Shown here piece after piece: positions 25,829 to 49,041 of a stretch of 64,000 nt of DNA. The translations under genes were made by a program, and so were the position numbers. Position 1 is the first letter of the stretch. The number at the start of each line of letters is the position of its first letter. The notes beneath the pieces are model-generated. The model ran no database searches, was not told where the DNA came from, and saw only the letters and a list, made by a program, of their open reading frames with translations. Source of the DNA: an uncultured Planctomycetales bacterium. GTDB taxonomy: Bacteria > 4484-113. Location: positions 5 through 64,004 of the forward strand of contig CAZKNJ010000009.1 of NCBI GenBank assembly GCA_964554185.1, in the 5' to 3' direction.

Positions 25829-25879
25829 TCCTCAAATCAGGAAACCAAGGTGGAAAGGGTAAACATTTTGTAAGCATCT

Positions 25880-25888: not shown

Positions 25889-25981
25889 CTTTTCGCCTGG
25901 ATTTTGAAGGCTCTGAGCGGGCAAAAAGGAGAGAAACGCTGTTACCGCGGAGGACAGCGCACGGTCGACTCATAGGGCTCT

Positions 25982-28900: not shown

Positions 28901-29512
28901 GACGCGCAGGCCATGTTTGCGCGCCATCCGCAGGTTAAACTCAATCGCGCGCTTTTCATCGGGCAGGTTGTGGTCCTGCAGCTCGAGGAAGAACCTCTCC
29001 GGCCCAAACAACTCTGTGTAGCGGATGATTTCACGCTCCGCCGATTCCTCGCCCTCATAGCGCAGCGGCGCGTTCACCACGCCGGAGAGGCAGGAGGACA
29101 TCGCAATCAAGCCCTCGTGCTGCGCCGCCAGCAGCTCGAAGTCAATCCGCGGACGGTAGTAGTGGCCTTCGGTGCCGGCGTGGGTGACGAGCTTCAGCAG
29201 GTTGCGGTAGCCGGCGAGGTTCTCGCAGAGCAGCACGAGGTGGCGGTTGTAGCGGTCTTCCTCGCCGTCGCGGTCGGTGCTCTTCCGCAGCGCCATGTAC
29301 ATCTCGCAGCCGATGATGGGCTTCAGTCCGGTCGCAACCATCCGGGCGTAGAAGTCCACCGCCCCGTAGAGGTTGCCGTGGTCGGTGATGGCGAAGGCCT
29401 CCATGCCGGTGGACTTAAGGCGCGAGACAATGTCGTCGAATTTGGAGATGCCGTCCAGCAGCGAGTACTCGGTGTGGTTGTGGAGGTGGACAAACTGAGC
29501 GACGGTAGCCAT
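25982..29512 (-). CDS. dnaE: DNA polymerase III alpha subunit
   Basis: PHP domain HLHNHTEYSLLDG. Polymerase core and OB-fold layout. 1176 aa. Confidence 0.95.
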   Translation of the reverse strand: MATVAQFVHLHNHTEYSLLDGISKFDDIVSRLKSTGMEAFAITDHGNLYGAVDFYARMVATGLKPIIGCEMYMALRKSTDRDGEEDRYNRHLVLLCENLAGYRNLLKLVTHAGTEGHYYRPRIDFELLAAQHEGLIAMSSCLSGVVNAPLRYEGEESAEREIIRYTELFGPERFFLELQDHNLPDEKRAIEFNLRMARKHGLRVVATNDSHYVNPEDAEAHDIALCLQTSAKFDDPNRMRFTGTNYYIKTPKEMAALFAEAPHALNTTLDIAERCQVDITDTQVHFPTFDIPPERQEKTLGDYLRALAYAGAKDIYDDPLPPEVEARLEEELSVIISTGFSALFLLVWDLMSFARKSGIPVGPGRGSAAGSLVSYCLRITKLDPLKYGLFFERFLNKERVELPDFDLDFCYERREEMIDYVKSRYGEGCVAQIITFSTLKARAAVKAVGRVKDFEFAYVNRITKLIAGLKTTIQEAIEQNPELAQFLEKDAAARELVELSQKLEGLASHMSVHAAGVVVADRPLVEYVPLRAVKDTDMLVTQFEMGGLTRVGLLKLDFLGLKTLTTIDKCVRYVREVEGIELDIDRISLDDEAVYEEIFGRGNCFGVFQFEAPHIVRVLKETRPKTIEDLTALNALNRPGPMQANMIPQYIANRKDPDKAPLLLPELETVFSSTGGVLLYQEQVMQIARLLAGYNLGEADTLRKAMGKKILSLMSQQKTDFTERAVARGTDKRKAVEIWDMMAKFAGYGFNKAHAACYALLAYQTAFLKHYYPHHFLAALMNTYIQDSSKLTAALDQCQRLGIEVVPPSVNLSEFDFVSDARGRIIFGLGGIKHVGRVAVDELVSVRQAGGPYTSVEEFLERVDGQKVNKTALEFMVRAGAFEEFGLDRGELLRDLDSYLSRRVHHNQIAMFDAASAPSPSSSQATSAEDIARMEKESIGAYLTHNPYENSRVLADSAVTQLSALFQRLAERGIYMSDAKVRIGGVLDGVKVLVSRRKQQYALARLCSLEHTLNLVIGPSVYQKVASILLDGNEVVVQGSLGFDEATEESFDDLSDAAKLYVAEIALYRPQAGKHVQPSDDVTPAEAKPCPGRVLLKLRRPFAPQELQQLKELLVQSPGECPVYLLIPAADGTARKVALSREIGVAPDIIRNIAPGLPLEAEFVAQTKPSRPARQS

Positions 29513-29523
29513 CGGGTTGAAAC

Positions 29524-30732
29524 CTACTTGCCGGCAAGATAGTCCAGCGCGACCTGCTTGAGCAGCTCCACGCCGGTGGGCAACACATCCTCGTCAATGC
29601 GGAATTTCGGATGGTGGTGGGGATAGGTGATGCCTTTCTTCTCATTGCGGGCGCCGAGATAGGCGAATACTATCGGCGCAACTTCGCCATAACGCGAAAA
29701 GTCTTCGCCGCCCATCGAGGGTTCGGCGTCAACTACATGCCGCTTGCCTACGATTCCACGCGCCAACTCGCGCACGCGCCCGGCATGCTTGGCGTCATTC
29801 ACCGTGGCATTGAGCATACGCCGGTAGTCCACTTCCGCCTTGCAGCCGAGCGCCTTGGCGGTGTCGGCGGTGCACTTCTTCAGCCGACGTTCAATCAGCT
29901 TCCTAACGTCCGGGTGGAAAGTGCGCACCGTGCCTTTCATCACGACTTTCGGCGGAATGATGTTGAACGCGGTGCCTCCCTGGATGGAGGCGATGGTGAG
30001 CACCGCCGGCAGCAGCGGGTTGACGTTGCGCGAGACGATAGTGTGGAGGTTGAGGACGATGGAGCTGGCGGCCACCACCGGGTCAACGCTGCCGTGGGGA
30101 TAAGCTGCATGGCCGCCGACGCCTTCCACCGTGATGATGAACTCGTCAACCGCCGCCATGCACGGCCCCGCAAGCACGGCAATCTTGGGCGCGTCCAGAG
30201 GCACCCAGGCGTGCAGCGCAAAGGCGAAATCCACCTTCGGGTCTTTCATCACGCCAGCCTTGACCATAGCGCCGCCGCCGTCCGCGCCCTCTTCACCGGG
30301 CTGGAAGCAGAACTTCACCCGCCCGCGGGGCAGCCCCAGTTGGGTAAGCACTTTGGCGGCGATGAGCAGCATCGCCACATGCGAGTCGTGACCGCAGGCG
30401 TGCATCACGCCGGGGGTCTTGCTCACGTATGTGTGGGTGTTTTCCTCGGTGATCGGCAGCGCATCCATGTCTGCGCGCAGCATGATGGTAGGCCCGGGCT
30501 TGCCCGAGTCCAGCAAAGCAACTACGCCCGTTCCCGCCAGACGCTTAGTGGGGAGCCTGAGCTGCTTCAAGTAGGATTCCACGAAGGCAGAGGTCTTGCG
30601 CTCCTGGAAAGCGACTTCCGGGTTCTGGTGTATGTGCCGCCGCAGCGCAATGAGCTCGCCGGTGAGAGCCTTGACTTCGGCTGAAACGGCAGGTTCGTGG
30701 CGGGCGGCGGTTTTGGCAGGGTCCATTGGCAA
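29524..30732 (-). CDS. M20D-family amidohydrolase (N-acyl-amino-acid amidohydrolase/hippurate hydrolase-like)
   Basis: HACGHDSH and GEEG..GG metal-binding motifs. Its stop is 11 nt upstream of the dnaE start. Confidence 0.8.
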   Translation of the reverse strand: MPMDPAKTAARHEPAVSAEVKALTGELIALRRHIHQNPEVAFQERKTSAFVESYLKQLRLPTKRLAGTGVVALLDSGKPGPTIMLRADMDALPITEENTHTYVSKTPGVMHACGHDSHVAMLLIAAKVLTQLGLPRGRVKFCFQPGEEGADGGGAMVKAGVMKDPKVDFAFALHAWVPLDAPKIAVLAGPCMAAVDEFIITVEGVGGHAAYPHGSVDPVVAASSIVLNLHTIVSRNVNPLLPAVLTIASIQGGTAFNIIPPKVVMKGTVRTFHPDVRKLIERRLKKCTADTAKALGCKAEVDYRRMLNATVNDAKHAGRVRELARGIVGKRHVVDAEPSMGGEDFSRYGEVAPIVFAYLGARNEKKGITYPHHHPKFRIDEDVLPTGVELLKQVALDYLAGK

Positions 30733-30834
30733 CTCCTCGCGGGATTCCCGGCAATCATACCACGGGATTCGGCGCGGCTGGGATGTGGCCAGCGGGGTTT
30801 GGGCGGCCAGCCGATAATCTGATGCTGGCGAAGG

Positions 30835-30840
30835 TATAAT
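30835..30840 (+). promoter_or_regulatory. -10 hexamer TATAAT 8 nt upstream of the def GTG start; leaderless
   Basis: gaaggTATAATctactgccGTG. Confidence 0.4.
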
Positions 30841-30848
30841 CTACTGCC

Positions 30849-31328
30849 GTGACGCGCAAAATCAGAGAATACCCGGACGAAGTCCTGACTAAGCCGGCGA
30901 GGAAAGTCGGCCGCAAGGACGTGGAAGACGTGCGCCAGCTGGTTGAGGACATGGTGGATACCATGGATGAGTTCGGCGGCGTGGGGCTGGCGGCCAACCA
31001 GGTCGGCGAGACTCTGCGGGTGATATTGGTGCGCGATCTGGAACACGACGAGACCCACTACTACATCAACCCTACCATCACCGGCGGCCAGGGCGAGGAG
31101 CTGGACGAGGAAGGCTGCCTGTCCTTCCCCGAGCTGGTGGGGCTGATACCGCGCTACGAGAAAGTGACGGTGAAGTTCCAGGATCTGGAGCTGAACACCT
31201 ACAAGCTGGAGCTGGAGGGGCTGGACGCCCGCATAGTGCAGCACGAAGTTGACCACCTCAACGGCGTCACCATCCGCGACCGCAGCACCGTGGAGCTTTA
31301 CCGCAAGAAAGCCGACGACGAGGACTGA
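30849..31328 (+). CDS. def: peptide deformylase
   Basis: GVGLAANQVG, EGCLSFP and QHEVDHLNG motifs. Confidence 0.9.
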   Translation: MTRKIREYPDEVLTKPARKVGRKDVEDVRQLVEDMVDTMDEFGGVGLAANQVGETLRVILVRDLEHDETHYYINPTITGGQGEELDEEGCLSFPELVGLIPRYEKVTVKFQDLELNTYKLELEGLDARIVQHEVDHLNGVTIRDRSTVELYRKKADDED

Positions 31329-31354
31329 GCCGCGCCGGATGGCGCAAGGGCCTG

Positions 31355-31363
31355 TGATAAACT
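31355..31363 (+). promoter_or_regulatory. extended -10-like element TGaTAAACT 6 nt upstream of the ruvB ATG; leaderless
   Basis: cctgTGaTAAACTtacggcATG. Confidence 0.35.
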
Positions 31364-31369
31364 TACGGC

Positions 31370-32443
31370 ATGGCGCGCGGCGGGAGCTCCACACCTGAAT
31401 CCCCGGATGAACGGCTGGTCTCGGCCGAGGCCGTGGAGTTTTCCGCGTTCACCAAGAAGCGGCCGGAGTCGTTTGAGCAGTTCGTGGGCCAGCCGCAGAC
31501 GGTGAGCAACCTCCAGGTGATGCTGCAGGCCGCCTGCAAGCGCGGCGCGGCGCTTGAGCACGTGCTGTTCGCCGGCCCGCCGGGGCTGGGCAAGACCACG
31601 CTGGCGCACATCATCGCCCACGAGATGGGCGTGGGGCTCACTTCCACCACCGGGCCGCTGCTGGAGCGGCCGGGCGACCTGCTCGCGATACTCACGGCGC
31701 TGGGCGAGCGGCAGGTGCTGTTCATTGACGAGATTCACCGGCTGAACCGCGCGGTGGAGGAGACGCTCTACTCGGCGATGGAGCAGTTCAAGGTGGACGT
31801 CATCATCGGCAAGGGACCGGGGGCGCGCACGATACCGCTGAACCTGAGCCCGTTCACCCTGGTGGGCGCGACCACCCGCAGCGGGCTGCTCACCGCGCCC
31901 TTGCGCGACCGCTTCGGCGCGCTGTTCCACCTGAGCTTCTACGCGCCGGAGGAGCTGGCCGAGATCATCCGCCGCAAGGCCCGGGAGCACGGCATCGGCA
32001 TCGCCGAAGACAGCCTGCAGTCCATCGCCGCCAAGTCGCGCGGGACGCCGCGCATCGCGCTGCGCCTGTTCAAGCGCGTGTGGGATTTCGCCGTGGTCGC
32101 GAGCGAAGAGGTTATCAGCAAGCAGCTGGCGGAGGAGTCGCTGGCGCGGCTGGGCATCGGCGACGAGGGGCTGGACGAGATGGACCGCCGCATCCTGAAG
32201 CTCATCCTGAAGAACTTCGATGGTGGGCCGGTGGGCATCAGCACGATTGCGGCAGTGCTCAATGAAGAGCGCGACACGATTGAGGATGTGTATGAGCCAT
32301 TCCTGATGAAGGCGGGATTCCTGGAGAAGACGCCGCGCGGGCGCTGCGCCACGCAGAAGACTTACGAGTACTTCAAGCTACCTTATGCGCCAAGGGAGAT
32401 GCCGCATGGGCCCGAGGCGCCGCTGTTCGGCGAGGAGCAGTGA
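31370..32443 (+). CDS. ruvB: Holliday junction branch-migration ATPase RuvB
   Basis: Walker A GPPGLGKTTLA. Walker B LFIDEIHRL. RuvB winged-helix tail. Confidence 0.95.
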   Translation: MARGGSSTPESPDERLVSAEAVEFSAFTKKRPESFEQFVGQPQTVSNLQVMLQAACKRGAALEHVLFAGPPGLGKTTLAHIIAHEMGVGLTSTTGPLLERPGDLLAILTALGERQVLFIDEIHRLNRAVEETLYSAMEQFKVDVIIGKGPGARTIPLNLSPFTLVGATTRSGLLTAPLRDRFGALFHLSFYAPEELAEIIRRKAREHGIGIAEDSLQSIAAKSRGTPRIALRLFKRVWDFAVVASEEVISKQLAEESLARLGIGDEGLDEMDRRILKLILKNFDGGPVGISTIAAVLNEERDTIEDVYEPFLMKAGFLEKTPRGRCATQKTYEYFKLPYAPREMPHGPEAPLFGEEQ

Positions 32444-32449: not shown

Positions 32450-33049
32450 TCACTCATGCTTCTCGCCACGCTTGATGGCTTCCCAGTTCGTGAGCACATC
32501 CTCGGCTGATTCCACTTCCACCTCGCCGAACACGTGTGGGTGGCGGCGGATGAGCTTCTCGGTGATGCCGTCCACTATATCGTCCAAGCTGAAGTAGCCG
32601 ATAGCCTCAGCCAGCGCTCCGAGCAGAACCGGCTGAAGAAGCAGGTCGCCGAGTTCCAAACGTAATTCCTCCAGGGCAGCCGCGCGCGCGTTTTCCAGCT
32701 CTGGCGGTAAGTCGCCCGTCCCCAGGGGCGCGCCAGAAGCGGAAGCCTCCTGGCTGAAATCTTCGCGCGCGGGATGGTGGGCGTGAGCCCTGCCCTTCTT
32801 CTCGTGTTGAGTGGAAAAGCCCTCCGGCGGCTGCGGATTTGAGGTGGGCAGGCCGCGGTGCGCCCGGATGCGCTCTTCCACCGCCAGCAGGCGGTCAATG
32901 GCGGCCACCACCTCGCCAGCTTCCTCCTCCACGTACTGCCGCAGCGAGGCCGGCGTCTGCTCCCGATCCCAGGGGCAGCCGCCGGGCGCCAACAGCCGGC
33001 GAACCACTGCCACGAACTCCGCGTAGCGCTCTTGCGCAGGGGCATCCAT
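32450..33049 (-). CDS. mazG: MazG-family nucleoside triphosphate pyrophosphohydrolase with internal low-complexity insertion
   Basis: GCPWDREQT and EExGE motifs. C-terminal RRHPHVFG. About 70-aa His/Pro/Gly-rich insert between the two conserved helices. Confidence 0.75.
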   Translation of the reverse strand: MDAPAQERYAEFVAVVRRLLAPGGCPWDREQTPASLRQYVEEEAGEVVAAIDRLLAVEERIRAHRGLPTSNPQPPEGFSTQHEKKGRAHAHHPAREDFSQEASASGAPLGTGDLPPELENARAAALEELRLELGDLLLQPVLLGALAEAIGYFSLDDIVDGITEKLIRRHPHVFGEVEVESAEDVLTNWEAIKRGEKHE

Positions 33050-33127
33050 ACGGCGCGGATTGTAGCACGGCGGGCTGGCGGTGGTATAATACGTGTTCGC
33101 GTTTTGAGAGCCTATAACTCACAACTT

Positions 33128-33952
33128 GGGCTGCTGCTGCCCCGCTTCCGGCTGGACTGGATTGGGGTTAACCTGGAGGATTTCCTCCGGAGGGTGCTGC
33201 TCGCCGCCAAGTCGGCGCATCCGGAGAACTTCAGCTATGAGCTGTATCCGGTGGCCAAGGCGGGCGTGGGCGCCGGGATGGCCTCCACCAGCAATTCAGA
33301 TCTGGCGCAGCTCTACGAGCACAATCTATCGCGCTACCACATCCTTCCGCAGGAGCGGCAGCTGATAGCGCTATACCGCAAGCTCAACCGCGACGCGCAG
33401 CTTCCCAGCTACCCGCGCGCATGGGAGAAAGTGAGCTTCCACGAGCGTTACTTGCAGGCTGGGGACTTTCCGGTGCTGAATACGTGTTTTGACGCGTTGA
33501 TGTGGTTCTTCGTCCGGCACACAACGCGCTCTATCACCGCCACCGACGGGCTGGAGCTGGTGCGGACATTCTTCATGGAGCCGGCGGTGCTCACTGCAAC
33601 AGACCGGGTGCAGGCTGCCCTGGAACGCCTGGAGCCACTTATACGGCCGGGATTCGCCGTGTTTGACCACTGGGCGGAGCTGGCGCAGAGCGCCTTCCAG
33701 CCGGGGACGCGCTTCATCATCACCGGCAGCGATGAGGCGCCGATTGAGGGGCCGAACACCGTCATCGCATCGTTCCAAGACAATCCGCTGCGCCTGGAGC
33801 TGAGAAGCTACCTGCTGGAGACGGAGCTAGCGCAGGTTGCGCCGTTCCGCGAGCGCAAGGCAGAGCTGGCGGGCAGGATGGCCGCGCTGTCCGAAGCCAG
33901 GCTCGGGGCGTTCACCGAAACTGACAACCAAGGAGCGGAGGACGCGGCGTAG
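33128..33952 (+). CDS. hypothetical protein (about 274 aa; start uncertain)
   Basis: ORF is open from 32858 but overlaps mazG on the opposite strand. First plausible start after mazG is TTG at 33128. No recognisable motif. Confidence 0.35.
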   Translation, partial: GLLLPRFRLDWIGVNLEDFLRRVLLAAKSAHPENFSYELYPVAKAGVGAGMASTSNSDLAQLYEHNLSRYHILPQERQLIALYRKLNRDAQLPSYPRAWEKVSFHERYLQAGDFPVLNTCFDALMWFFVRHTTRSITATDGLELVRTFFMEPAVLTATDRVQAALERLEPLIRPGFAVFDHWAELAQSAFQPGTRFIITGSDEAPIEGPNTVIASFQDNPLRLELRSYLLETELAQVAPFRERKAELAGRMAALSEARLGAFTETDNQGAEDAA

Positions 33953-33957: not shown

Positions 33958-34563
33958 ATGCTCAACGGCATCATAATTTCCGGCTGTTCCGGAGTGGGCA
34001 AGAGCACGGTAATCCGCCGGCTGCTGGAGCTTCATCTCGACTACACTTTCTCCATTAGCTGCACCACGCGCAAACCGCGAAAAGGTGAGATTGATGGGGT
34101 GCACTACCATTTCATTGACCACGCCGAGTTCGAGCGGCGGATTGAGGATGGGTACTTCCTGGAGTGGGAGAAGGTGTACACCGACTACTACGGGACACCG
34201 AAGACTGTAATTGATGAGGCCGAGCGGTTCCCCAAGGTGGTCATCTTTGAGCTGGACACCCGGGGCGCGCTGGTGCTGAAGCAGAAATACCCCCAGTTCA
34301 CGGCAGTGGCCCTGCTGCCTCCTAGCATTGAGGACCTGGCCAAGCGGCTGAGCATGCGCGGGTCGGAGGACGAAAAATCACTGGCGGAACGGCAGCTTTA
34401 CACCAAAGAGGAGCTTCACCGGCTGCAGAAGTCGGATTACGCGATAATCAACCGCAGTATTGATGATACGGTAGGGGCGCTTGAGACCATTATTCTGAGC
34501 CTCAACCACCGCACGAGGTTTGCGGAAGGGCATATAGAGGGGCTGCTAAAGGCCCTCAAGTAG
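33958..34563 (+). CDS. gmk: guanylate kinase
   Basis: P-loop GCSGVGKST. SCTTR motif. GxxYxF motif. Confidence 0.9.
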   Translation: MLNGIIISGCSGVGKSTVIRRLLELHLDYTFSISCTTRKPRKGEIDGVHYHFIDHAEFERRIEDGYFLEWEKVYTDYYGTPKTVIDEAERFPKVVIFELDTRGALVLKQKYPQFTAVALLPPSIEDLAKRLSMRGSEDEKSLAERQLYTKEELHRLQKSDYAIINRSIDDTVGALETIILSLNHRTRFAEGHIEGLLKALK

Positions 34564-34571: not shown

Positions 34572-35006
34572 GTGGACGAACGCAAAGAACGCGGAACCAA
34601 GGACACACTGATGTACCCGCTGCTGGAGGATCTGCTCAAGCAGCTGCCCAGCAAATATGAATTGGTGACCCTTGCGTCCCTCAGGGCCAAGCAGGTCATC
34701 GGCAAACTACGCATCGGCCCGACCTTTGAAGGCGAAGTGGACGACGACGTGAAGGCGCTGGCGGGCGGCCTCAAGCCGCTGTCGTTGGCGCTAAGGGAAA
34801 TCGCCAGCGGCAAGCTTGACCGCGAGAAAATGTACCTGTTGGAGTACCTGGAGAGCTTCCGCAAGGGTGACGAAACAGCTTCGATCTCCGCGCCGCCGGA
34901 GAGTGAATTCGTCTTTGTGGCGCCGGAGGAAAACCCCGCCCTGCCGGAAGGCGACGAGACCGAAGTGACGGACGAAACCGACCTAGATGAAGAAACCGAC
35001 GAATAG
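34572..35006 (+). CDS. rpoZ: DNA-directed RNA polymerase omega subunit with acidic C-terminal tail
   Basis: YELVTLASLRAKQV core. AGGAGG RBS before the GTG start. Position between gmk and coaBC matches Firmicutes. Confidence 0.7.
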   Translation: MDERKERGTKDTLMYPLLEDLLKQLPSKYELVTLASLRAKQVIGKLRIGPTFEGEVDDDVKALAGGLKPLSLALREIASGKLDREKMYLLEYLESFRKGDETASISAPPESEFVFVAPEENPALPEGDETEVTDETDLDEETDE

Positions 35007-36237
35007 CAGCGACCGGGCGGTGCTAGTCGGCGTTTCCGGCGGCATCGCCGCCTACAAGATGTGCGATGTCATCCGGCGGCTGGCCGACCGCGGCATCAAG
35101 TGCCGCGTGGTGATGACACCCAACGCAACCAGGTTCATCACCCCACTCACTCTCGCCGCCCTGGCCGGCACGCAAGTGCTGGTGGACGAGTTCCCGCCGG
35201 AGGCGGGTGCGGTTTGCAGCAGCTTCGACCCTCTGGCGCACATCTCGCTTTCCGAGGAGTGTGAAGTGCTCCTGATCGCCCCGGCTACAGCGAACACCAT
35301 CGCCAAGCTCGCCAACGGCATCGCCGACAACCTGCTCACTTCGGCGGCGCTCGCCTGGGAGGGGCCCGTGCTGATCGCCCCCGCAATGAACACGCGGATG
35401 TACGCCCATTCGGCGACGCAGGAGAACCTGCGGCGACTGAAGGAGCGCGGCATTTACGAGATTGAACCGGACGAGGGCTGGCTCGCCTGCGGTGAAACCG
35501 GCCGCGGCCGTTTGGCCACCCCCGAGCGCATTGTCACCGAAGTCGTGCGCGCGCTGGCCGACGAGGACGGGCCGCTGACCGGCAAGCGCATTGTCGTCAC
35601 CGCCGGGGGCACCCGCGAGTACCTTGACCCCATCAGGTTTGTCTCCAACGCTTCCACCGGCACGCTGGCGCTGATGTGCGCCTACCAACTAGCGCTGCAC
35701 GGCGCTATGATTGAGCTCATCGCCGGCCCCGGCACCAGACAAGACCTGCTGGTGGAGCTGCCGGCGCAAGTTATCGCTGTAACAACCTCAGAAGATATGC
35801 GCCGGGCGGTGGTGGACCGCACTGCCGGCTGCGACGCGCTGCTGATGCTGGCGGCGGTCGCAGATTTCGCGCCGGAGCCGGTGGGTCACAAGATCAAGAA
35901 AGAGGAGTTCGCCGAGCTTACGCTCAAGCTCAAGCGGACCACGGACATACTGGCGGAGCTGGCGGATAACCGCACCTTCGTTAAGGTGGGTGCCTCGGTG
36001 GAAACCGAGCAGGCCCAGGAGCGCGCGCAGGCGAAGCTCGCTGCCAAGAAGCTGGACGCCATCGTCGCGGTGGATTACAGCGCGGAGCGTCCGCCTTTTG
36101 GCGACGGCACGATCAAAGCCGGCGTGTTTACTGGCAGTGGAGTGGAGCTGGAGACCGCCGAAAGAGAGAAACTTGAACTCGCGGAGCGGATTACCCATCT
36201 CATCATTAAGCTCATAACCGAAAAGGAGAAACCATGA
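34987..36237 (+). CDS. coaBC: bifunctional phosphopantothenoylcysteine decarboxylase / phosphopantothenate-cysteine ligase
   Basis: N-terminal flavoprotein fold VLVGVSGGIAAYK. C-terminal CoaB domain. Confidence 0.9.
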   Translation: MKKPTNSSDRAVLVGVSGGIAAYKMCDVIRRLADRGIKCRVVMTPNATRFITPLTLAALAGTQVLVDEFPPEAGAVCSSFDPLAHISLSEECEVLLIAPATANTIAKLANGIADNLLTSAALAWEGPVLIAPAMNTRMYAHSATQENLRRLKERGIYEIEPDEGWLACGETGRGRLATPERIVTEVVRALADEDGPLTGKRIVVTAGGTREYLDPIRFVSNASTGTLALMCAYQLALHGAMIELIAGPGTRQDLLVELPAQVIAVTTSEDMRRAVVDRTAGCDALLMLAAVADFAPEPVGHKIKKEEFAELTLKLKRTTDILAELADNRTFVKVGASVETEQAQERAQAKLAAKKLDAIVAVDYSAERPPFGDGTIKAGVFTGSGVELETAEREKLELAERITHLIIKLITEKEKP

Positions 36238-37157
36238 GTTCCCGTAACCTGAGAATCACCTTTGCCATAGGACTGCTGGCGGCAGTGCTCGCGGCCGTGC
36301 CCGCCTCGGCAGCGGGAAACACGCCGCTGGCCGAACACAATGGCGTGAAATATGTGCTGGACGATTTCCACATCTTCTTCATGCGCCAGCTCGGCGCGCG
36401 CGGCCTGGTGACCTTCCTGGAACAGGCGATTGTCTATGAGGAAGCCACGAAGGTCGGCCTGACCCCGACCGACGCGGAACGCAGCAAGTTTATCCAGGAG
36501 AACATGTCTCAGGAGATCTACGACGGCTTCAAACAGCTTTACCCCCAGGATGTGCTGAGCCGCTTTGTGGATTACACCATAATGAACCGCAAGTTCCAAG
36601 ACTACCTTGAAGCCAAGTTCATCAAGGAAAAGAACATTGTCGTCACCGACGATGACGCCAACAAGTACTACTTGCAGAACATCAAGGTATTCCAACCGCC
36701 GGAACGAGTGTGGATGTCCATCATCTCGGTGGAGACGCTGGAGACGGCGAAGGAGGTGCTTGCGAAACTGGACAAGGGCGAGAACTTCAACGAGCTCGCC
36801 AGCGTGTATAACTCCGATCCGGAACTAAGAGCGCGCGCGGGCTATGTGGGCGTGATGGAACGAGGCGCAGGGCTGCCGGCTCCGATTGAGGAGGCGGCGT
36901 TCGCGCTCAGCCCCGACAAGTACTCGCAGGTAATAAAAGGCACGCTCTTCCATGTGCTCTATGTTCACGACAAACGGCCGGCGGAGCTTCACGAGTTTGC
37001 CGAGGTGAAGGACGAAATCAAGGCCACGCTCAGGGATATGCTGGTGCAGAACTACATCGACGAGTACTTAAACGAGCTGTACACGCGGGAGCTGCCGAAG
37101 TTCGATATCAGGGCCAACCTGTTTAACGTGGGCGAAGGCGAAACGCCCACCGGCTAG
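36234..37157 (+). CDS. secreted parvulin-type (PpiC) peptidyl-prolyl isomerase, PrsA/SurA-like
   Basis: Signal peptide AAVLAAVPASAAG. PpiC domain region ...VWMSIISVETLETAKEV...GYVGVM.... Confidence 0.75.
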   Translation: MSSRNLRITFAIGLLAAVLAAVPASAAGNTPLAEHNGVKYVLDDFHIFFMRQLGARGLVTFLEQAIVYEEATKVGLTPTDAERSKFIQENMSQEIYDGFKQLYPQDVLSRFVDYTIMNRKFQDYLEAKFIKEKNIVVTDDDANKYYLQNIKVFQPPERVWMSIISVETLETAKEVLAKLDKGENFNELASVYNSDPELRARAGYVGVMERGAGLPAPIEEAAFALSPDKYSQVIKGTLFHVLYVHDKRPAELHEFAEVKDEIKATLRDMLVQNYIDEYLNELYTRELPKFDIRANLFNVGEGETPTG

Positions 37158-37192: not shown

Positions 37193-39313
37193 GTGAAGAC
37201 CGCGGAAGTCTACCTCCTGACGCGAAGCCCAGCATTCCAGCCGTTCACCTACTCGATTCCGCCGCATTTCGCCATAGAGCCAGGAAGCCTGGTAGCAGTC
37301 CCTTTCCGCAACGGGTTTGATCTCGGAGTGGTGGCAGAGCTTGCGGAAGCGCTCGATGCGCGTAGCCGCGAGATGCTGAAGCCCGTAGTCGGATTGGCTG
37401 AGGGACCGGCAGTACGACCGCCTTTCGGCAAGCTTCTGCTTTTCCTCGCGCAGCTGGCGATGTGCTCACCCAGCGAAATGTTCGCGCAAGCCACCTTCGG
37501 TAATGCGGCCCGCAGAAGCGCGCTGTTTCTCTCCCCGGGCGGCAGGAGTGCGCCCGTCGAACTACGCACGGGGCTGGAAGTGGTGCGCATGATGCTACCG
37601 CGCAAGCGCACGCGAATCTCCAGCGCTTTAGTGGGCAAGCTGATGAAGTCGGTCGGCTTCAGCGAATTGCTCGCGCTGGTTGAGTGCGGCGCGCTCGTGG
37701 TTGAAGGCCACATCGGGTTAGGCGTGCAGGATGCTCCCGCTCCCCCACCAGCTTCCAGGCAGAAGCTGCTGTTTCCGCCGGGGGCGGCGGGCATTCAGCT
37801 CGACCCGGAGCTGGCGCTGGCCGGGCAGATTGACCGTGCTCTGACTGCTGCGTCGCTGCGGCCCACGGAGTCTTATCCCGCTGCCTGCCGCCGGGTTGAC
37901 TGGCGCAGTTTCCTCTCCTCACGGTCTGTGGTTGAACTGCTCACTCGCAGGCGCGGAAGGAAGCTGGTGCTCGTGCCCACTGAGTGGCATGTCCACCGGT
38001 TTCTGCAGGATGTGCCAGCGAGGTTCAGGGGGCAGGTGCTGGCGTTTGACACATCAATGAAGGTTGCGGAGTTCCGGCTGCTCGCGGAACAGCTTGCGAG
38101 CAGTGAGCCCACAATCGTGGTGGGGAAGCGGTCAGCGCAGTTCCTGGCGATGTACGCCGAGTTTGATGAGATAGTCGTGTTTGATCCAACAGCGCCGCAG
38201 TTCCGCGCCGAGCAGTATCCGCGCTACGACACCTTCGCCAACCTGATGGGGCTTGGCAGGGCGACAGGCCGGCAGGTAACTATGCTGCCGCTGGCGCCGC
38301 TGGCGCTGGGCGTATGGGAGGAGACACTCAGCGCGGAGGTGGTGGCTCTGCCGCCAAGCCCCGGCGAGAGGATCGACCGCATCGCCGAGCTGGTGGCAGA
38401 GCATGCGCAGTCTGGCCAGCAACTGCTGGTGTACAACAATGCCGTGGGCGGGGGGCAGGAAGTATTCTGCGCCGCCTGCGGGGAGGGCATGCGCTGCTCC
38501 CAGTGCGGCCGCCGACTCGTGTTTGTTACTGAAAGCTCCGAGGCCGCCTGCCGCGGGTGCGGCTACCGGGAGAAGGCGCCCAGATGCCAAGACTGCGGCT
38601 CGCAGGACCTGGGAGTGGAAATAATCGGCGTGGTTGGTTTGACCCGGCTGGTGCGCAAGCTCCTGCGGGAGTCAGGGAAGCGTCCGACGCCACGGGTGGG
38701 GCCGCTTGATGGTTCCAGGCGTGAGAAGATACGCGTACCGAACCTCGCCCGCACGGATGTGCTAATCGGCACTAGCACGCTGTTGACCCCACTGGAGTTC
38801 TACCGGCCGAAATCAATAATCTACGTGGCACAGGAGCTGTTCCGACCAGGCCCCGGCGGCATCCCGGAGGCCGCAGTAGTGGAGGAAGCCACGCGCCTCA
38901 GCCGCCTTTACGGCATCAACGCCGGACGCGTGGTGATTGCCGCGCCGCAAGCGCTGGCGGAGGCCATTCGCGCGCAGCTTGGGCCGGGGGGTGCGCGGGC
39001 CCGCGAGGAGCTGAATGGAATCCGGCGGCAGTTCCAGCTGCCGCCGTACAACGTGCGCGTGCATTTCACGCTGTACAGCACAAAGGCGAAGGCCCTGAAG
39101 GACTTCGCCGAAGAGATGAAGGGGCAGCTTGACTTTGCCAACCGCATCATTGAGTGGGACTTGAGCCGCACCGTCAGAACCCACCGCAAGGGCACCCTCG
39201 CCATGAGCGGCAGCGTGCTGCTGGACCGCTTTTCGGCGGGGGCGTTCTATGATTTGCGCAAACGGGGCAAAGGGAAGAGAATAGACCTCGTGTACTGGCC
39301 CCAGTACTACTAA
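37193..39313 (+). CDS. priA: PriA-like primosomal protein lacking helicase ATPase motifs
   Basis: N-terminal 3' DNA-binding-domain-like region. Cys-rich zinc region CAACGEGMRCSQCG...CRGCGY...CQDCGS. Helicase-core collinearity is present (LVLVPT..., TIVVGKRSAQF...) but GxGKT is absent (replaced by DWRSFLSS) and DEEH is replaced by FDPT. Confidence 0.7.
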   Translation: MKTAEVYLLTRSPAFQPFTYSIPPHFAIEPGSLVAVPFRNGFDLGVVAELAEALDARSREMLKPVVGLAEGPAVRPPFGKLLLFLAQLAMCSPSEMFAQATFGNAARRSALFLSPGGRSAPVELRTGLEVVRMMLPRKRTRISSALVGKLMKSVGFSELLALVECGALVVEGHIGLGVQDAPAPPPASRQKLLFPPGAAGIQLDPELALAGQIDRALTAASLRPTESYPAACRRVDWRSFLSSRSVVELLTRRRGRKLVLVPTEWHVHRFLQDVPARFRGQVLAFDTSMKVAEFRLLAEQLASSEPTIVVGKRSAQFLAMYAEFDEIVVFDPTAPQFRAEQYPRYDTFANLMGLGRATGRQVTMLPLAPLALGVWEETLSAEVVALPPSPGERIDRIAELVAEHAQSGQQLLVYNNAVGGGQEVFCAACGEGMRCSQCGRRLVFVTESSEAACRGCGYREKAPRCQDCGSQDLGVEIIGVVGLTRLVRKLLRESGKRPTPRVGPLDGSRREKIRVPNLARTDVLIGTSTLLTPLEFYRPKSIIYVAQELFRPGPGGIPEAAVVEEATRLSRLYGINAGRVVIAAPQALAEAIRAQLGPGGARAREELNGIRRQFQLPPYNVRVHFTLYSTKAKALKDFAEEMKGQLDFANRIIEWDLSRTVRTHRKGTLAMSGSVLLDRFSAGAFYDLRKRGKGKRIDLVYWPQYY

Positions 39314-39323: not shown

Positions 39324-40094
39324 ATGAACACCGCCCTGAGAGCCGCACTCATAACCACTGCGCTGGGATGCGCGCTGTTCGCTGCGCCCATAGTTGCCCC
39401 ATCGCAGGACAACGCGGGAACCGGAGCTAAGGCAGTAATGGACGGCGGCGTTTCGCCACCCACTCCCGACGATGCGAAGGCGCAGCACCTGCGCGGCGAG
39501 ATAGAGCGGATACTCGCGCAATCGCAGTTCAAGAGCCTGCGCCCCGGCGAGAGGAAGCCGCTGCCGCGGTGGCTGCGTCTGCTGAGGGGTTTCTGGGAGG
39601 ACTTGTGGTCAACCGTTTCAGGGGGAGCTGCCCGCCTGGGCGAGAGCAATCCGTGGGCGGTGTTTGTAGTCATCGGGCTGTGCGCACTGGTGCTGCTGGA
39701 AATGCTGCGTCGGGTGCTGCGGGACAGCCTGTTCTATGCTCCCAAGCAGCAGGACGGCCAGGATAAGGCGCACTTGACGCCCGAAGAGCTGCTGTCGAGG
39801 GCGGCGCAAGCGCACAGAGATGGAAACGACCCGGAGGCGTTACGGCTGGTGTTTCACGCGGCGCTGCTAAGCCTGTTTGGCGAGGCGGCCGAGCAAACGC
39901 CCAGCCTGAAGCTGGCGGCGGAGCTTGCGGCAGCAGCGGACGCGCCGGTGGATGCCTTTCAGAATCTCAACCGCAGCTTTGAGCGGGCGTTTTACGGTGG
40001 TGCGGAGGTTCGCAGCGCCGACTACGAGCAAGCCCGCAGCCTGACCGCAACCTTGCGGCGGTTTGCCGGTAAAGGTGAGGACGATGAAGCGTAG
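39324..40094 (+). CDS. DUF4129-like membrane protein
   Basis: Signal/TM segment, then a central TM. C-terminal ...FQNLNRSFERAFYGGAEV... resembles the DUF4129 tail that is also present at the TgpA C-terminus. Confidence 0.5.
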   Translation: MNTALRAALITTALGCALFAAPIVAPSQDNAGTGAKAVMDGGVSPPTPDDAKAQHLRGEIERILAQSQFKSLRPGERKPLPRWLRLLRGFWEDLWSTVSGGAARLGESNPWAVFVVIGLCALVLLEMLRRVLRDSLFYAPKQQDGQDKAHLTPEELLSRAAQAHRDGNDPEALRLVFHAALLSLFGEAAEQTPSLKLAAELAAAADAPVDAFQNLNRSFERAFYGGAEVRSADYEQARSLTATLRRFAGKGEDDEA

Positions 40095-41355
40095 GAAGGG
40101 ACTGCAGCCACTACTCATCTGCGCGGCGTTCGCGGCGATTCTCGCGCTGCTGCTGTACGCCGCCCAGCCCGGCGGCGACACGGTGGAAAACCCGCTTTCG
40201 GCAACCAGCACCACGCCGCTGGGACTTAACGCGTTCTACCAGCTACTGAAATCGGAGCGGATGCAGCCAGCTTTCTATGGGCATGAGCTGAGCGTGCTGC
40301 CCTATGGCTCAACGATACTAGTCGGAGACGACATCCCTTACCGGGGATGGGAGCGCTACCTTGATCGCCAAGAGCTGTGGGATACAGCTGGCTCCAGAGC
40401 GGCGAACGTCATCTACCTGACAGCGGTTCAGGATCACGCATTTGTGGCGACAAACGAGCCCGCTCCCGAAGACCTGGAGACTGTCACTCCGATAGAGGAC
40501 GACAGCGAGGCCCTGGACCCGGAACTGGGGGAGCAGGTGGAAGTATTCGAGGTGCCGTGGGAGCTTGGCAGCGATGGCTATACGCGCATGCACACAGCTA
40601 ACCTTGACTCGGCCATCTTCAAGGGTGTGCGGCTGCTGGAAGCGGGCAGCTTCACGCCGACAATGGTCCCGCCACTGAGCGCGAATCGCGAGCTTGCGCA
40701 GGCGGCACGTGAAGTGTATCTGTTTAGGGGAACTGACCGGCCGCTGGTGGTAACAGCGCAGTTGGGGCGCGGTACCTGGATCACAGTGTTTGCCGCCGAG
40801 CTGTTTGCCAACCGCGACATCGGCCGCGCGGACAACGTGGTTTTTGCATACAACGTCGCGGCGGAGGCGGGTAAAGCCGGCGTCGGGCCAGTGTACTTCC
40901 TTGAGTCGATTCACGGCTACAGCGTGGAGGACACTGGCGTGTTGAGCCTACTGCTTTTCACCTGGTGGGGGCAGCTGGCGCTCTTGGGATTGGTGGGAGC
41001 GGTTATCATCTATCTGCCGAGCATGTTCCCGCTGGGGCGGGAGGTTGAGACGCCCGTGGTGAAGTTCCCTTCCGCGTTGCTGCGGGTGCGGGCGCTGGCG
41101 GAAATCTGGCGCAGATCGCCGGACCAAACGGCTGCCAGGAAGTTCGCCGTCGCTGCGGCCCTCGGTATTGAGCCCGACACCATCGGGGCGAGGAAGATAA
41201 CCGGGATGTTGCAGGAGCTGGGTTACCCGCAGGTCCGCGCCGCGGAGCTGGCGAATGAGCTGGCGTCAGGTGAAGACGGGAGGATGCGGGCGGAAGTTAT
41301 ACGCGCTTACAATAGGCTGGTGCAGCGGTTCGGGCGCATCAGCCGTTTCAACTAG
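40084..41355 (+). CDS. DUF4350-like membrane-anchored protein (424 aa)
   Basis: N-terminal TM (LLICAAFAAILALLLYAA) and one TM near the C-terminus. Call is by architecture and neighbourhood to DUF4129. ATG overlaps the upstream stop by 11 nt. Confidence 0.4.
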   Translation: MKRRKGLQPLLICAAFAAILALLLYAAQPGGDTVENPLSATSTTPLGLNAFYQLLKSERMQPAFYGHELSVLPYGSTILVGDDIPYRGWERYLDRQELWDTAGSRAANVIYLTAVQDHAFVATNEPAPEDLETVTPIEDDSEALDPELGEQVEVFEVPWELGSDGYTRMHTANLDSAIFKGVRLLEAGSFTPTMVPPLSANRELAQAAREVYLFRGTDRPLVVTAQLGRGTWITVFAAELFANRDIGRADNVVFAYNVAAEAGKAGVGPVYFLESIHGYSVEDTGVLSLLLFTWWGQLALLGLVGAVIIYLPSMFPLGREVETPVVKFPSALLRVRALAEIWRRSPDQTAARKFAVAAALGIEPDTIGARKITGMLQELGYPQVRAAELANELASGEDGRMRAEVIRAYNRLVQRFGRISRFN

Positions 41356-41365
41356 GACTGACTCT

Positions 41366-42481
41366 ATGCAGCACTCTTATACGAGAGTGGAAATAGACCT
41401 CCGGAAATACCGGGGGAACCTGGACCTGATACGCAGCGAGCTGGGCGGTACACGGCTGCTCCTGGTGCTGAAGGCGAACGCCTACGGGCTGGGCGCAGTG
41501 GGAATGCTGCCCGCCATCAGCGACCTCCCTGACATCTTCGTGGGAGTTGCGATGGTCGATGAGGCGCTGGAGCTGCGCCAGGCCGACTATCGGGGAAACA
41601 TCCTGGTAATGGGGTACACGCCGCCGGAGCAGTACAAGCTCGCGTTGCGGCACTTCCTGAGCCTCGGCGTGTACCACCCGGAGAACATCGCCAAGCTGGA
41701 AGACGCCGCGGCGGAAAGGGGGACGGTGGCGAAGGTGCATATCAAGGTTGACACCGGCATGCACCGCGTAGGCGTGATGCCCGCAGACCTGCCGAAGCTA
41801 CTGGACGAGATTAAGGAAAACCCGCATGTGGCGGTGGAAGGAGTGTTCTCCCACTTGGCGGGCGCGGGTGATCCCGCCGACCCGCTGATTCCGCAGCAGG
41901 TGACCGCTTTCCGCGAGTGCGCCTCGCGAATTGAAGATGAACTTGGAGTTCACACCATCAAGCATATCGCCAACACTTCGGGCGCTTTGGCTTTTCCCGA
42001 GAGCCGCTTTGATATGGTGCGCATCGGCATACTCCCCATCGGATTCCATCCGCCGGGCTTTGCCGTGCAGAAGCTGCCGGTGCAGCCGATACTCCGGTTC
42101 AGCACCGAAGTGGTGGACGCCCGCCGCGTGCCCGCCGGCACCGGCGTGTCCTACGGCCACAAGTTCCATACGGAAACAGATAGCACCATCATCACGGTTC
42201 CGCTGGGGTACGCCGACGGCATCCCGTACCACTTCTTCCCCGAGGGGCGGGTGCTTTTCCGGGGTAAGAGACGCAGGATTGCCGGCGCGGTGAATATGGA
42301 CTACTTGATGATCAGCGCCGATGACGAGACAGATGTGCAGATCGGCGAAGAGGTTGTGCTCGTGGGCCGGCAGGGCGATGAGGAGATCTCGCTCAACGAG
42401 TTCGCCGACTACTGCGAGAGTGTCAACTACGACATCATCTGCAAGATGGGCCGCCGCATCCGGCGGGATTACCTCTGGTGA
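41366..42481 (+). CDS. alr: alanine racemase
   Basis: PLP-lysine motif VLKANAYGLG. Two-domain layout. ORF is open from 41255. Start chosen at ATG 41366. Confidence 0.9.
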   Translation: MQHSYTRVEIDLRKYRGNLDLIRSELGGTRLLLVLKANAYGLGAVGMLPAISDLPDIFVGVAMVDEALELRQADYRGNILVMGYTPPEQYKLALRHFLSLGVYHPENIAKLEDAAAERGTVAKVHIKVDTGMHRVGVMPADLPKLLDEIKENPHVAVEGVFSHLAGAGDPADPLIPQQVTAFRECASRIEDELGVHTIKHIANTSGALAFPESRFDMVRIGILPIGFHPPGFAVQKLPVQPILRFSTEVVDARRVPAGTGVSYGHKFHTETDSTIITVPLGYADGIPYHFFPEGRVLFRGKRRRIAGAVNMDYLMISADDETDVQIGEEVVLVGRQGDEEISLNEFADYCESVNYDIICKMGRRIRRDYLW

Positions 42482-42530
42482 GGCGGGCATTGCCACCAAG
42501 CCGCGTCGCGCCTACAATGGGCAGCGCCCT

Positions 42531-44870
42531 GTGACCTTACGCATCGTAACAGCCGTTATCATCATCGCTGCAGCACTCGGAGGCTGCGGTTACTGGTTTT
42601 ACCACGCGGTTTACCCGCGGATGCTGACCTTTGAAGAGAAGGTCGATGGGGGCTTTCTGGAAGCGGCATATGGTCAGGCAAGAGTGGAGGTTCGCCGCGA
42701 TCCGTGCAAGCGGACATATGGCCAGCTTGCGCGCATACTGCTGTTGCGCGGCAACATCGGCCGGGCCGACCTCATTGTGCGCGTAACCGGCGCAAGCGAG
42801 CCGCTGGTTGAGGAAGTTCGCGGCTTCCAGGCATCGGTGCTGCGCGAAGCCGAGGAAAGCGGTACGGTCAGCAACCGTTTTGCGCAGGGCGGGCTGGCGG
42901 AACTGAGGGGCTTCCCGGTCTATCAGGACCTCAAGTTCTTTGCGGGCTACCGCCTGGCGTTGCTGGGAGACTGGCGCGGGGCGCAAGACTATTTCCTGAT
43001 GGCCGAGCGGGGCGGAGTGTCCCCCGAGCTGAGTCCCTACTTGAAGTACTATTTGGCGCGCGCACTGACGAAGTCCGCGGATACTAAGGACAGTAAGCGT
43101 GGGTATAGCCTACTGGGCAAGCTGACTGATCCGAAAGACCGGCACGGCCTGCAAGCGCGGGTGTGGCTGAACCTCCTGCAATCGGCCATCGCCAGCGACA
43201 ATCCCGGCTTCTTCAATATGTACCTGATGCACATAGACCGGCTGCACAATTCCTGGGAGTACGCCAAGGCGGAGGTGGCGGTGGGCGACTACTTCCTTAG
43301 CCGTGACGACCCCATCAAAGCAGCCAAGGCTTGTGCGAGAGCGCTGGAGAACTACCCCGACAGCGCGAACACGCGGTTGTCAGCCGCCCAGGGCTTGCTG
43401 AAAGCGCTGACGGTGCTGAATGGCGATTTCCGCAGCCTGGAAGCGGAACTAGCTACTGCGGAATGTTCCAATATCCTCTACCGGTTCGCCGAGACACTGG
43501 ATCAGCCTAATGATCTTGCCGCAGCGGCAGAAACGCTGCGCGGGTCGCTGCGCAACGGCGCGAACAACAGCAGCCGCTTCCTGGCGATGGAGGCGCTTTC
43601 GCTGCTTTACCTGAAGCAAGGGCAAAAGGAGAAGCTGGAAGAGCTGCTGCTGCTGGAAAACCTCGCTCCGGCGCCGGAGAACGTGATTCAAACCTCATAC
43701 TTAAACAACGCCAGGCTGCTGGAGAAGACGGGGCAGACGCTGCAAGCCCGGGGGTATTACGAGAGCGCCGCGAAGCTTGAAGGGCCACGCCGGAGCGAAG
43801 CCCTGTTTGAGCACTACAGCCTGCTCAAGGAAAAGGCAGCTAGCCTTGACGGTTCGGCAGCCATTCGGCTGCTGACGGAAGTGGTGGAGGACGCGGAAAG
43901 CTCTAACCGGCTGAAGGCCTGCGAAGAGCTCATACCGCTGGCTATCGCGGCGGGCCGCACGGATACCGCCAAGCGGTCGATTGAGATTGCCGGCGAACTG
44001 GACGACGCGCTGGCGCGGTTCTGGCGCATCTACCTGGCCGAGCACGGCGGGGACGCGAAAGAGGCGGAACGGCTGCGCTCGGAAATCATGGTTAGGGCCT
44101 TTAGCTACTACGAGCTGCAACCGCTGGGGAAGCTGGAGAAGAAGCGGATTGAGTGCAGGAGTGCGCCTTTCTACCTGGAAGACGAGACCGCAGCGGAATA
44201 CCTGGTGGGGTTGTTCCTCACTGACCTGGCCTGCGAAGTGAGCGACGTTTCCCGACCGTATGAGCTTTCGGCGGTGCCAGCCGCCATCGTGCTGCGCAAT
44301 TACGAGTTTGCTGAGAGTGTCAAGACCAGCAGCTGGTTCGCCACTGAAATGCTGGAACAGGGGCCGATGATGGATGGCGCGCTGACCAGCTACGCCCTGC
44401 GGCTGGCATATCCCCTTCCCTACAAAGACGAGGTGGCGCAGGCGGCGCAGCGTTACTCTGTCCCCGAAGAGCTTATATATGCGGTGATGAAGAAGGAGAG
44501 CAATTTTGACCCGATTGCCACCTCCAAGGCAGGAGCGAGGGGGCTGATGCAGCTTATGCCGGCAACCGCGGAGGTCTTCTCCCGCTTCCTGCTCCCGGAG
44601 CTGGCCGGCAGGCCGCTCGGTGATCCGTCCAAGAATGTACACCTGGGTGCATCGTACCTCGCGAGCCTGACCACGGCTTACCGGCAGCAGTATCTGGTAC
44701 TATCGGCGTATAATGGCGGTCCAGGCAACTTGAACCGCTGGAGGCAGCAGGCCGTAACCGACGACCCGCTGGTCTTTCTGGAGATAATCCCGAACAGCGA
44801 AAACGAGGCTTTCGTCAAGAAAACCACGAAGTACGCGCTGATTTATCGCTATGTCTTGGCTGCAAACTAG
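42531..44870 (+). CDS. slt: soluble lytic murein transglycosylase (superhelical TPR-like N-domain + SLT catalytic domain)
   Basis: C-terminal SLT motifs MKKESNFDP, GLMQLMP and YNGGPGN. N-terminal TM after a GTG start at 42531. ORF is open from 42321 overlapping alr. Confidence 0.8.
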   Translation: MTLRIVTAVIIIAAALGGCGYWFYHAVYPRMLTFEEKVDGGFLEAAYGQARVEVRRDPCKRTYGQLARILLLRGNIGRADLIVRVTGASEPLVEEVRGFQASVLREAEESGTVSNRFAQGGLAELRGFPVYQDLKFFAGYRLALLGDWRGAQDYFLMAERGGVSPELSPYLKYYLARALTKSADTKDSKRGYSLLGKLTDPKDRHGLQARVWLNLLQSAIASDNPGFFNMYLMHIDRLHNSWEYAKAEVAVGDYFLSRDDPIKAAKACARALENYPDSANTRLSAAQGLLKALTVLNGDFRSLEAELATAECSNILYRFAETLDQPNDLAAAAETLRGSLRNGANNSSRFLAMEALSLLYLKQGQKEKLEELLLLENLAPAPENVIQTSYLNNARLLEKTGQTLQARGYYESAAKLEGPRRSEALFEHYSLLKEKAASLDGSAAIRLLTEVVEDAESSNRLKACEELIPLAIAAGRTDTAKRSIEIAGELDDALARFWRIYLAEHGGDAKEAERLRSEIMVRAFSYYELQPLGKLEKKRIECRSAPFYLEDETAAEYLVGLFLTDLACEVSDVSRPYELSAVPAAIVLRNYEFAESVKTSSWFATEMLEQGPMMDGALTSYALRLAYPLPYKDEVAQAAQRYSVPEELIYAVMKKESNFDPIATSKAGARGLMQLMPATAEVFSRFLLPELAGRPLGDPSKNVHLGASYLASLTTAYRQQYLVLSAYNGGPGNLNRWRQQAVTDDPLVFLEIIPNSENEAFVKKTTKYALIYRYVLAAN

Positions 44871-49038: not shown

Positions 49039-49041
49039 CTC

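Follow-up and report, generated by a model that had tools for sequence, protein, structure and literature searches.

A PriA homologue with a degenerate ATP site and conserved DNA-binding and zinc regions in an uncultured Planctomycetales bacterium

We analysed a stretch of 64,000 nucleotides (64 kb; hereafter the window) from an uncultured Planctomycetales bacterium (GenBank assembly GCA_964554185.1, contig CAZKNJ010000009.1, positions 5 to 64,004), in which a gene resembling priA lies downstream of gmk, rpoZ and coaBC (Table 1). An original prediction, made from the letters of the sequence, had described its product as a homologue of PriA collinear with that protein throughout, with intact DNA-binding and zinc-ribbon regions and degenerate Walker A and B motifs, likely to be ATPase-dead. 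Our results support this description of a PriA orthologue that has kept its DNA-binding and zinc regions and whose ATPase site is destroyed, on the basis of profile alignment, predicted fold, a check of each motif against 57 canonical PriAs, conserved gene order and purifying selection. The gene starts with GTG, just 3' of the purine-rich sequence GGGGTGGG, and the start codons of its orthologues (ATG, GTG or TTG) fall at the equivalent aligned position. Its closest relatives are referred to below as clade A and a more distant sister group as clade B.

A Pfam scan of the priA-like protein returned a single match, to PriA_3primeBD (PF17764; residues 12-99, E value 2.5e-10, 40.5 bits for a cut-off of 22.7), and no DEAD, ResIII, Helicase_C, PriA zinc-ribbon or PriA_C domain. 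All NCBIfam PriA equivalog models matched the protein, at only 20-77 bits for cut-offs of 230-1249. TIGR00595 gave 64.6 bits, under its cut-off of 230.35, and the top-scoring model, NF004070, gave 76.7 bits versus a cut-off of 921; the curated threshold of the PriA family was thus not reached. Comparison with PDB sequences by phmmer retrieved the PriA proteins of Klebsiella pneumoniae and Escherichia coli with E values of 6e-8 to 8e-6, chiefly through the cysteine-rich region. Profile-profile comparison (hhalign) of nine clade sequences with 57 canonical PriAs, headed by that of E. coli (NC_000913), gave a probability of 100% and an E value of 1.2e-69 over 662 columns, residues 1-706 being aligned with E. 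coli residues 1-732. Identity to canonical PriA is about 18%. This full-length alignment, together with the predicted fold, confirms the collinearity claimed for the protein, which belongs to the PriA family by homology, fold and synteny, not by catalytic motifs or curated thresholds.

The ATP site was compared motif by motif with the same 57 canonical sequences, in all of which G224, G227, G229, K230, D320, E321, G538, T539, Q580, G583, R584 and R587 are invariant. In motif I, three residues are deleted, K230 is replaced by W237 and T231 by R238, both replacements being found in eight of eight clade members. The original prediction had placed the replacement of GxGKT at DWRSF, and the alignment of K230 with W237 shows that this location was correct. 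In motif II, D320 is kept and the catalytic E321 is replaced by proline (9/9 in each case). Walker B had rightly been called altered, but the proposed change of DEEH to FDPT was one residue out of register: DEEH corresponds to DPTA, and its first aspartate is retained. The loss of motifs I and II predicted earlier was upheld by the alignment, and eight relatives carry the same substitutions. It was however incomplete as an account of the damage, since motifs III and VI have been lost too. Motif III (SAT) is not conserved in the protein or its clade. In the slot of motif VI, Q580 is replaced by arginine, G583 by variable residues and R584 by leucine (9/9), and R587 falls in a gap, the loss beginning after a conserved RLxxLY. 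The region of motif IV is retained. Overall, the ATP-site residues checked against canonical PriAs are all lost except the first Walker B aspartate, D331.

A regular-expression search of the proteins found no P-loop of the type [AG]x4GK[ST] in any clade member. Three-frame translation around motifs I and II showed that neither of the other two frames encodes GKT or DEEH and that both are riddled with stop codons. Because no clade protein holds a P-loop and the other frames hold stops and no motif, a frameshift and a cryptic Walker A elsewhere are excluded; a sequencing error is further contradicted by the relatives, which share the substitutions. What calls for an explanation is the lack of any variation within the clade at D331, W237 and R238, which lie at the former ATP cleft. 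The protein might still be a nucleoside triphosphatase or translocase that uses a non-canonical site made of Trp237-Arg238 and Asp331, or a site borrowed in trans from a partner, and a second, weaker nucleotide site has indeed been proposed for E. coli PriA (PMC5778457). We regard this as very improbable, as the P-loop glycines and lysine, the catalytic glutamate, the SAT of motif III and both arginine fingers of motif VI are missing, no P-loop occurs anywhere else in the protein, and the K230R change is by itself sufficient to abolish ATPase activity in E. coli (PMC5778457).

An AlphaFold2 model built on 17 sequences had a mean predicted local distance difference test score (pLDDT) of 84.9 and a predicted template-modelling (TM) score of 0.82, the sole disordered part being a linker at residues 180-198. 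When this model was compared with the PDB by Foldseek, the nine best matches were all PriA (4nl4, 6dgd, 6dcr, 8fak, 4nl8; E values 1.7e-27 to 9e-18), with about 760 aligned columns and TM scores of 0.45-0.55; 4nl4, 6dgd, 6dcr and 8fak matched at 1e-27 to 1e-25. Generic superfamily 2 helicases ranked after the PriA entries (E value 1.5e-6 or higher). The root-mean-square deviation of the matches is high, as expected when the several domains of a protein can move relative to one another. The PriA architecture is complete: a 3' DNA-binding domain, a winged helix, two RecA-like lobes, a two-zinc cysteine-rich insert in lobe 2 and a C-terminal domain, with boundaries that are approximate.

Several elements of canonical PriA are retained within this architecture. 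Residues F16, Y18 and K61 of the E. coli 3'-end pocket correspond to F18, Y20 and K63, which are conserved across the clade. In the loop that follows motif II, FRAEQYPRYDT is aligned with canonical YKQQEGWRYHARD, and we count this loop as retained; within the profile of nine clade sequences P343 and Y345 never vary, and most members also conserve D346 and T347. The corresponding E. coli segment, SYKQQEGWRYHARD, is presumably the aromatic-rich loop by which PriA binds single-stranded DNA. The eight cysteines of the zinc region (C426/429, C435/438, C453/456 and C465/468) are invariant in 17 of 17 sequences of clades A and B, a pattern suggesting that two zinc ions are bound. P617 and P618 of the LPP motif in the C-terminal domain are invariant. 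The retention of the pocket residues and of all eight cysteines agrees with the earlier statement that the DNA-binding and zinc-ribbon regions are intact.

Word-indexed protein searches found only five close relatives, each of metagenomic origin. When 1.84 billion representatives were searched exhaustively with a profile, clade A was delimited (P0001, P0005 and P0008-P0013, at 203-1380 bits), with a gap in score below it, the next match standing at about 133 bits. GTDB genomes contribute four further loci from metagenome-assembled genomes (MAGs), two of them labelled Planctomycetales bacterium and the other two simply bacterium. The same ATP-site substitutions recur in sequences assembled independently from different samples, at 40-90% identity, and the orthologues found in the conserved gene slot carry them at 40-73% identity. 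The ratio of nonsynonymous to synonymous substitution rates (dN/dS), calculated by the Nei-Gojobori method on unsaturated orthologue pairs, was 0.11-0.17 overall and below 0.31 in each domain. RecA-like lobe 1, with 0.20-0.27, was the most relaxed domain in three of four orthologue pairs and is still constrained, while the cysteine-rich region and the C-terminal domain (0.04-0.14 for the latter) were among the most constrained. We conclude that this is a functional gene under purifying selection in all its domains. That it could be a decaying pseudogene, or an artefact of assembly or sequencing, is refuted by the substitutions shared among relatives, the low dN/dS, the single unbroken frame of 706 codons and the alternative frames, which hold stops and no motifs; we give this reading practically no weight.

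Clade B consists of undescribed proteins of about 730 amino acids, also of metagenomic origin (P0014-P0019, P0023-P0026, P0029, P0031, P0032, P0073 and P0097; loci L013-L019), and a scan of metagenomes with its alignment returned five loci. It shares with clade A the tryptophan at the position of Lys230, the replacement of DEEH by D-P-[ST] (D-P-[ST]-H in clade B, for example DPSH), the eight cysteines and the absence of Walker A and of motif VI after RLxxLY. The two differ in that they are only 21-25% identical, in that clade B ends in RGPWL and clade A in SPRYY, and in that clade B genes have no rpoZ-coaBC upstream. Clades A and B each formed a clade and grouped together in a crude neighbour-joining tree, in which long-branch artefacts are possible.

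Every clade A locus that reaches far enough has exactly the order gmk-rpoZ-coaBC-ppiC-priA*-DUF4129-DUF4350-alr-SLT, where priA* denotes the motif-less gene, and nine clade A loci besides the window keep the synteny, even where the PriA proteins are only 40% identical. A canonical PriA, P0006 (locus L012), is encoded in gmk-rpoZ-priA-def-fmt. The gene studied here thus occupies the usual slot of priA, after gmk-rpoZ, which argues for orthology. The original prediction had described an rpoZ-coaBC-priA slot; the slot is conserved, but a ppiC-type gene intervenes between coaBC and priA. That prediction had also called this the only PriA-like gene, which holds for the window: tblastn with canonical PriA matched this gene alone (E value 1.6e-9), the next match having an E value of 1.8.

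The downstream genes are less easily accommodated. In all loci of clade A and two of clade B (the window, L001, L002, L003, L004-L006, L009-L011, L013 and L016), a DUF4129-DUF4350 pair follows the priA-like gene within 10 nucleotides or with overlap, and both proteins have predicted N-terminal hydrophobic segments. In clade B the pair lies directly downstream in L013 (a 2.7-Mb contig, ENA ERZ21869602 ctg94833l) and in L016, with different upstream genes; it is absent from this position in the remaining clade B loci. Proteins of the DUF4129 and DUF4350 types are usually found in clusters of the MoxR-DUF58-transglutaminase type. The linkage could be functional coupling or ancestral synteny. Its presence in two clade B loci of different upstream context, the extreme divergence from PriA (as measured by TIGR00595) and the confinement of the search for a second priA to the window would fit a diverged paralogue with a canonical priA elsewhere in the genome, serving another, ATP-independent role possibly tied to the DUF4129 and DUF4350 proteins. 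We consider this unlikely. The gmk-rpoZ-coaBC slot occupied by the gene is the one in which other bacteria have their canonical priA, each PriA domain is retained and constrained, the window holds no second PriA-like sequence, and other clade B genes are not followed by the DUF pair.

Table 1. Coordinates of the priA-like gene, of its domains and motifs, and of other genes in the window. Residue numbers are those of the priA-like protein.
Feature	Position	Strand	Remarks
priA-like gene	37193..39313	+	706 amino acids, single uninterrupted frame; probable pseudohelicase PriA; from the list of open reading frames
3' DNA-binding domain, residues 1-105	37193..37507	+	PF17764 and pocket conservation
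Winged-helix-like domain, residues ~106-179	37508..37729	+	Three helices plus strands in the AlphaFold2 model; aligned with the winged-helix region of E. coli PriA
Disordered linker, residues 180-205	37730-37807	+	pLDDT <50 at residues 180-198
RecA-like lobe 1 without ATP site, residues ~206-375	37808..38317	+	hhalign and fold match
Motif I (Walker A) remnant, R234-V-D-W237-R238	37892..37906	+	GVTGSGKT aligns with R---VDWRS
Motif II (Walker B) remnant, D331-P332-T333-A334	38183..38194	+	Replaces DEEH(320-323)
Loop after motif II (QFRAEQYPRYDT)	38198..38233	+	Aligns with E. coli SYKQQEGWRYHARD
Cysteine-rich (two-zinc) region, residues 422-475, four CxxC pairs, inserted in lobe 2	38456..38617	+	Aligns with the E. 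coli cysteine-rich region
Motif V remnant, VLIGTSTLLTP	38759..38791	+	G526 and T527 invariant, equivalent to canonical G538 and T539; Q540 replaced by Ser
Motif VI slot, RLSRLYG, no arginine fingers	38894..38914	+	Canonical QxxGRxGR lost
C-terminal domain, residues ~601-706, with L616-P617-P618 motif	38993..39310	+	Aligned with the E. coli C-terminal domain up to the final residue
ruvB	31370-32443	+	Upstream of the priA-like gene
mazG	32450-33049	-	Between ruvB and the open reading frame preceding gmk
Conserved open reading frame directly upstream of gmk	32858-33952	+	364 amino acids as listed; no Pfam match
gmk	33958-34563	+	Pfam
rpoZ	34572-35006	+	Pfam
coaBC	34987-36237	+	Pfam
ppiC-type rotamase	36234-37157	+	Pfam
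DUF4129-like gene	39324-40094	+	10 nucleotides after the priA-like stop
DUF4350-like gene	40063-41355	+	Overlaps the DUF4129-like gene
alr (listed open reading frame)	41255-42481	+	Pfam match begins at residue 47
SLT transglycosylase (listed open reading frame)	42321-44870	+	Pfam match begins at residue 706
gyrA	23357-25828	-	Replication gene
dnaE	25982-29512	-	Replication gene
MoxR-type AAA ATPase	18819-19841	-	Cluster 15152-19841
DUF58 protein	17557-18798	-	Same MoxR cluster
TgpA-like transglutaminase with DUF4129	15152-17560	-	Same MoxR cluster
Second DUF58 gene	59347-60648	-	
Flagellar genes including flgK, flhB and fliR	46333-50847 and 60645-62502	-	
SLH-domain protein	20513-22231		
TamB-like protein, 1543 amino acids	2719-7350		

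Several features of the surrounding genes can be added. The open reading frames listed for alr and SLT extend about 100 and 160 nucleotides, respectively, into the frames upstream of them; their true starts are probably further downstream, since the Pfam matches begin well inside these longest frames. The true start of the frame preceding gmk is probably also further downstream, because its relatives are only 281-282 amino acids long (L009 62-907, L010 5873-6721, L011 2761-3609). In the canonical PriA locus L012, YicC-like and RemA-like genes precede gmk. Upstream, dnaE and gyrA are located 8-14 kb from the priA-like gene, and replication and repair genes span positions 23357-32443. Among the flagellar genes, an unusually long protein of 901 amino acids has a Flagellin_N match only. 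Scans of the window for tRNA genes and for Rfam families at gathering threshold returned none of either.

Motif-less PriA-like proteins extend beyond clades A and B. We analysed 149 sequences, comprising the top-ranking representative clusters with a length of 500 amino acids or more, the earlier matches, and the E. coli and window references. Seventy-one were canonical, 56 had lost motifs I, II and VI, and 21 had lost motifs I and VI and kept DE. Motif I was lost in at least 77 of the 149 (for example P0007, P0022, P0027-P0036, P0064 and P0115), many of them 580-660 amino acids long, and an alignment-free regular-expression search agreed with the alignment-based motif classes; these counts give no frequency, because the sample is biased towards proteins resembling the motif-less profile. 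Motif-less PriA-like proteins are diverse. A bolder reading would make clades A and B an old, undescribed family derived from PriA, in which the cleft, instead of merely decaying, has been rebuilt as a site for a partner or ligand (Trp-Arg, Asp-Pro) and which works with DUF4129 and DUF4350 proteins, for example in membrane-associated reloading or in a role other than restart, PriA helicase activity having been lost many times. We find this rather unlikely, and put it forward as speculation.

The reading that we favour, with a probability of roughly three in four, is that the priA-like gene encodes the PriA orthologue of the organism, which has become a structure-specific scaffold devoid of enzymatic activity, a pseudohelicase. 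It is an orthologue of PriA with Walker A and B residues incompatible with ATP hydrolysis, as this term implies, and by its sequence it would be expected to work like a PriA pseudohelicase. What we say of the function of this protein, beyond sequence, fold and selection, is inference. Abandoned forks and D-loops would still be recognised, through the conserved 3'-end pocket and a DNA-binding shell that includes the post-motif-II loop and the zinc region. The protein would then nucleate the reloading of DnaB, either directly, by analogy with the PriA-DnaB interaction of Deinococcus radiodurans, or through adaptors, and without remodelling the fork. Translocation and unwinding of the nascent lagging strand would be impossible, which would limit restart to forks that expose single-stranded DNA of the lagging template, unless another helicase or a nuclease clears the strand. 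The original prediction had suggested reliance on another helicase, and such an enzyme may take over lagging-strand clearing; the open reading frames of at least 250 amino acids that were scanned in the window revealed no further helicase gene and no loader gene.

Several observations weigh against this scaffold model. The C-terminal domain and the zinc ribbon fall below the recognition thresholds of Pfam, and D17 of the 3'-end pocket is replaced by threonine or serine in the clade. For DNA binding, zinc binding and the recruitment of DnaB, the argument comes from conservation, and the search for a second, canonical priA covered the 64 kb of the window. Finally, a role in restart does not explain why two membrane-type proteins, DUF4129 and DUF4350, are encoded in the same conserved operon.

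PriA is regarded as a universally conserved helicase, and why its motifs are kept when E. coli survives without the activity is a long-standing question. A second natural lineage that has discarded the whole ATP site, with the non-catalytic parts under selection, strengthens the view that fork recognition and primosome nucleation are the core job of PriA. The invariant W-R and D-P in the dead cleft mark positions where new contacts might be sought. The many motif-less PriA-like clusters suggest that such loss may be common in uncultured bacteria, in contrast with the published statement, from a 2018 review, that PriA motifs are conserved "except in Deinococcus" (PMC5778457). If loss were common, the annotation of priA would change, because curated models miss such proteins, and so would the reconstruction of restart pathways in uncultured genomes.

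Compared with canonical PriA (E. coli, K. pneumoniae), the protein shares the order of domains, the fold, the 3'-end pocket and the eight-cysteine zinc region, as well as the GT of motif V, RxxxLY before motif VI, LPP, the extreme C-terminus and the position of its gene after gmk-rpoZ. It differs in that the catalytic residues of motifs I, II (the glutamate), III and VI are all absent. The partners PriB and DnaT are not expected outside Proteobacteria. Actinobacterial PriA (PRK14873, NF011451-NF011455), which we take to be annotated without detectable helicase domains, is a different group: the protein scored 19.6-33.5 bits with NF011451-NF011455, for cut-offs of 812-1147. If that annotation is right, actinobacteria would be a further natural lineage in which PriA has no working ATP site. 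A literature search on PriA in Planctomycetes or on other Walker-less PriAs found nothing relevant.

A functional analogy is provided by ATPase-dead mutants of E. coli PriA, such as priA300 (K230R) and K230A/D. The K230R protein lacks ATPase, helicase and translocase activity and still assembles primosomes, in cells that are near wild type; restart then goes by the PriA-PriB route, the helicase being needed for some routes only (PMC5778457). These mutants are laboratory point changes in an otherwise intact core, unlike the natural, ancient, multi-motif loss described here. The closest natural precedent, and the working model that we adopt, is PriA of D. radiodurans, a protein that lacks both ATPase and helicase activity, binds forks as well as single-stranded DNA, and has DnaB as an interaction partner (Lopper et al. 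2015, PMC4504706). The ATPase-deficient PriA of a radiation-resistant lineage invoked by the original prediction is therefore real. Taken together, priA300 and D. radiodurans PriA show that restart without unwinding by PriA is possible (PMC5778457, PMC4504706).

Like its D. radiodurans counterpart, the protein studied here is a PriA of full length in which motifs I and II have degenerated, and in each case this is presumably the cell's only PriA. A survey in 2015 of 100 PriAs from 18 phyla found the helicase motifs conserved outside Deinococcus-Thermus, where a recognisable P-loop is kept with lysine changed to arginine (PMC4504706). As compared with this published description, the P-loop is here deleted, the lysine has become tryptophan and the glutamate proline, and motifs III and VI are gone. 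Clade A is moreover known from metagenomes only, two of its four MAGs are labelled Planctomycetales, and it does not show the GKT to GRx change typical of the Deinococcus-Thermus subfamily. Its origin is probably independent of the loss in that group. Pseudohelicase PriA is therefore a known kind of protein; what is new is a separate, more degenerate clade known only from metagenomes, in which the loss is far more extreme than in Deinococcus.

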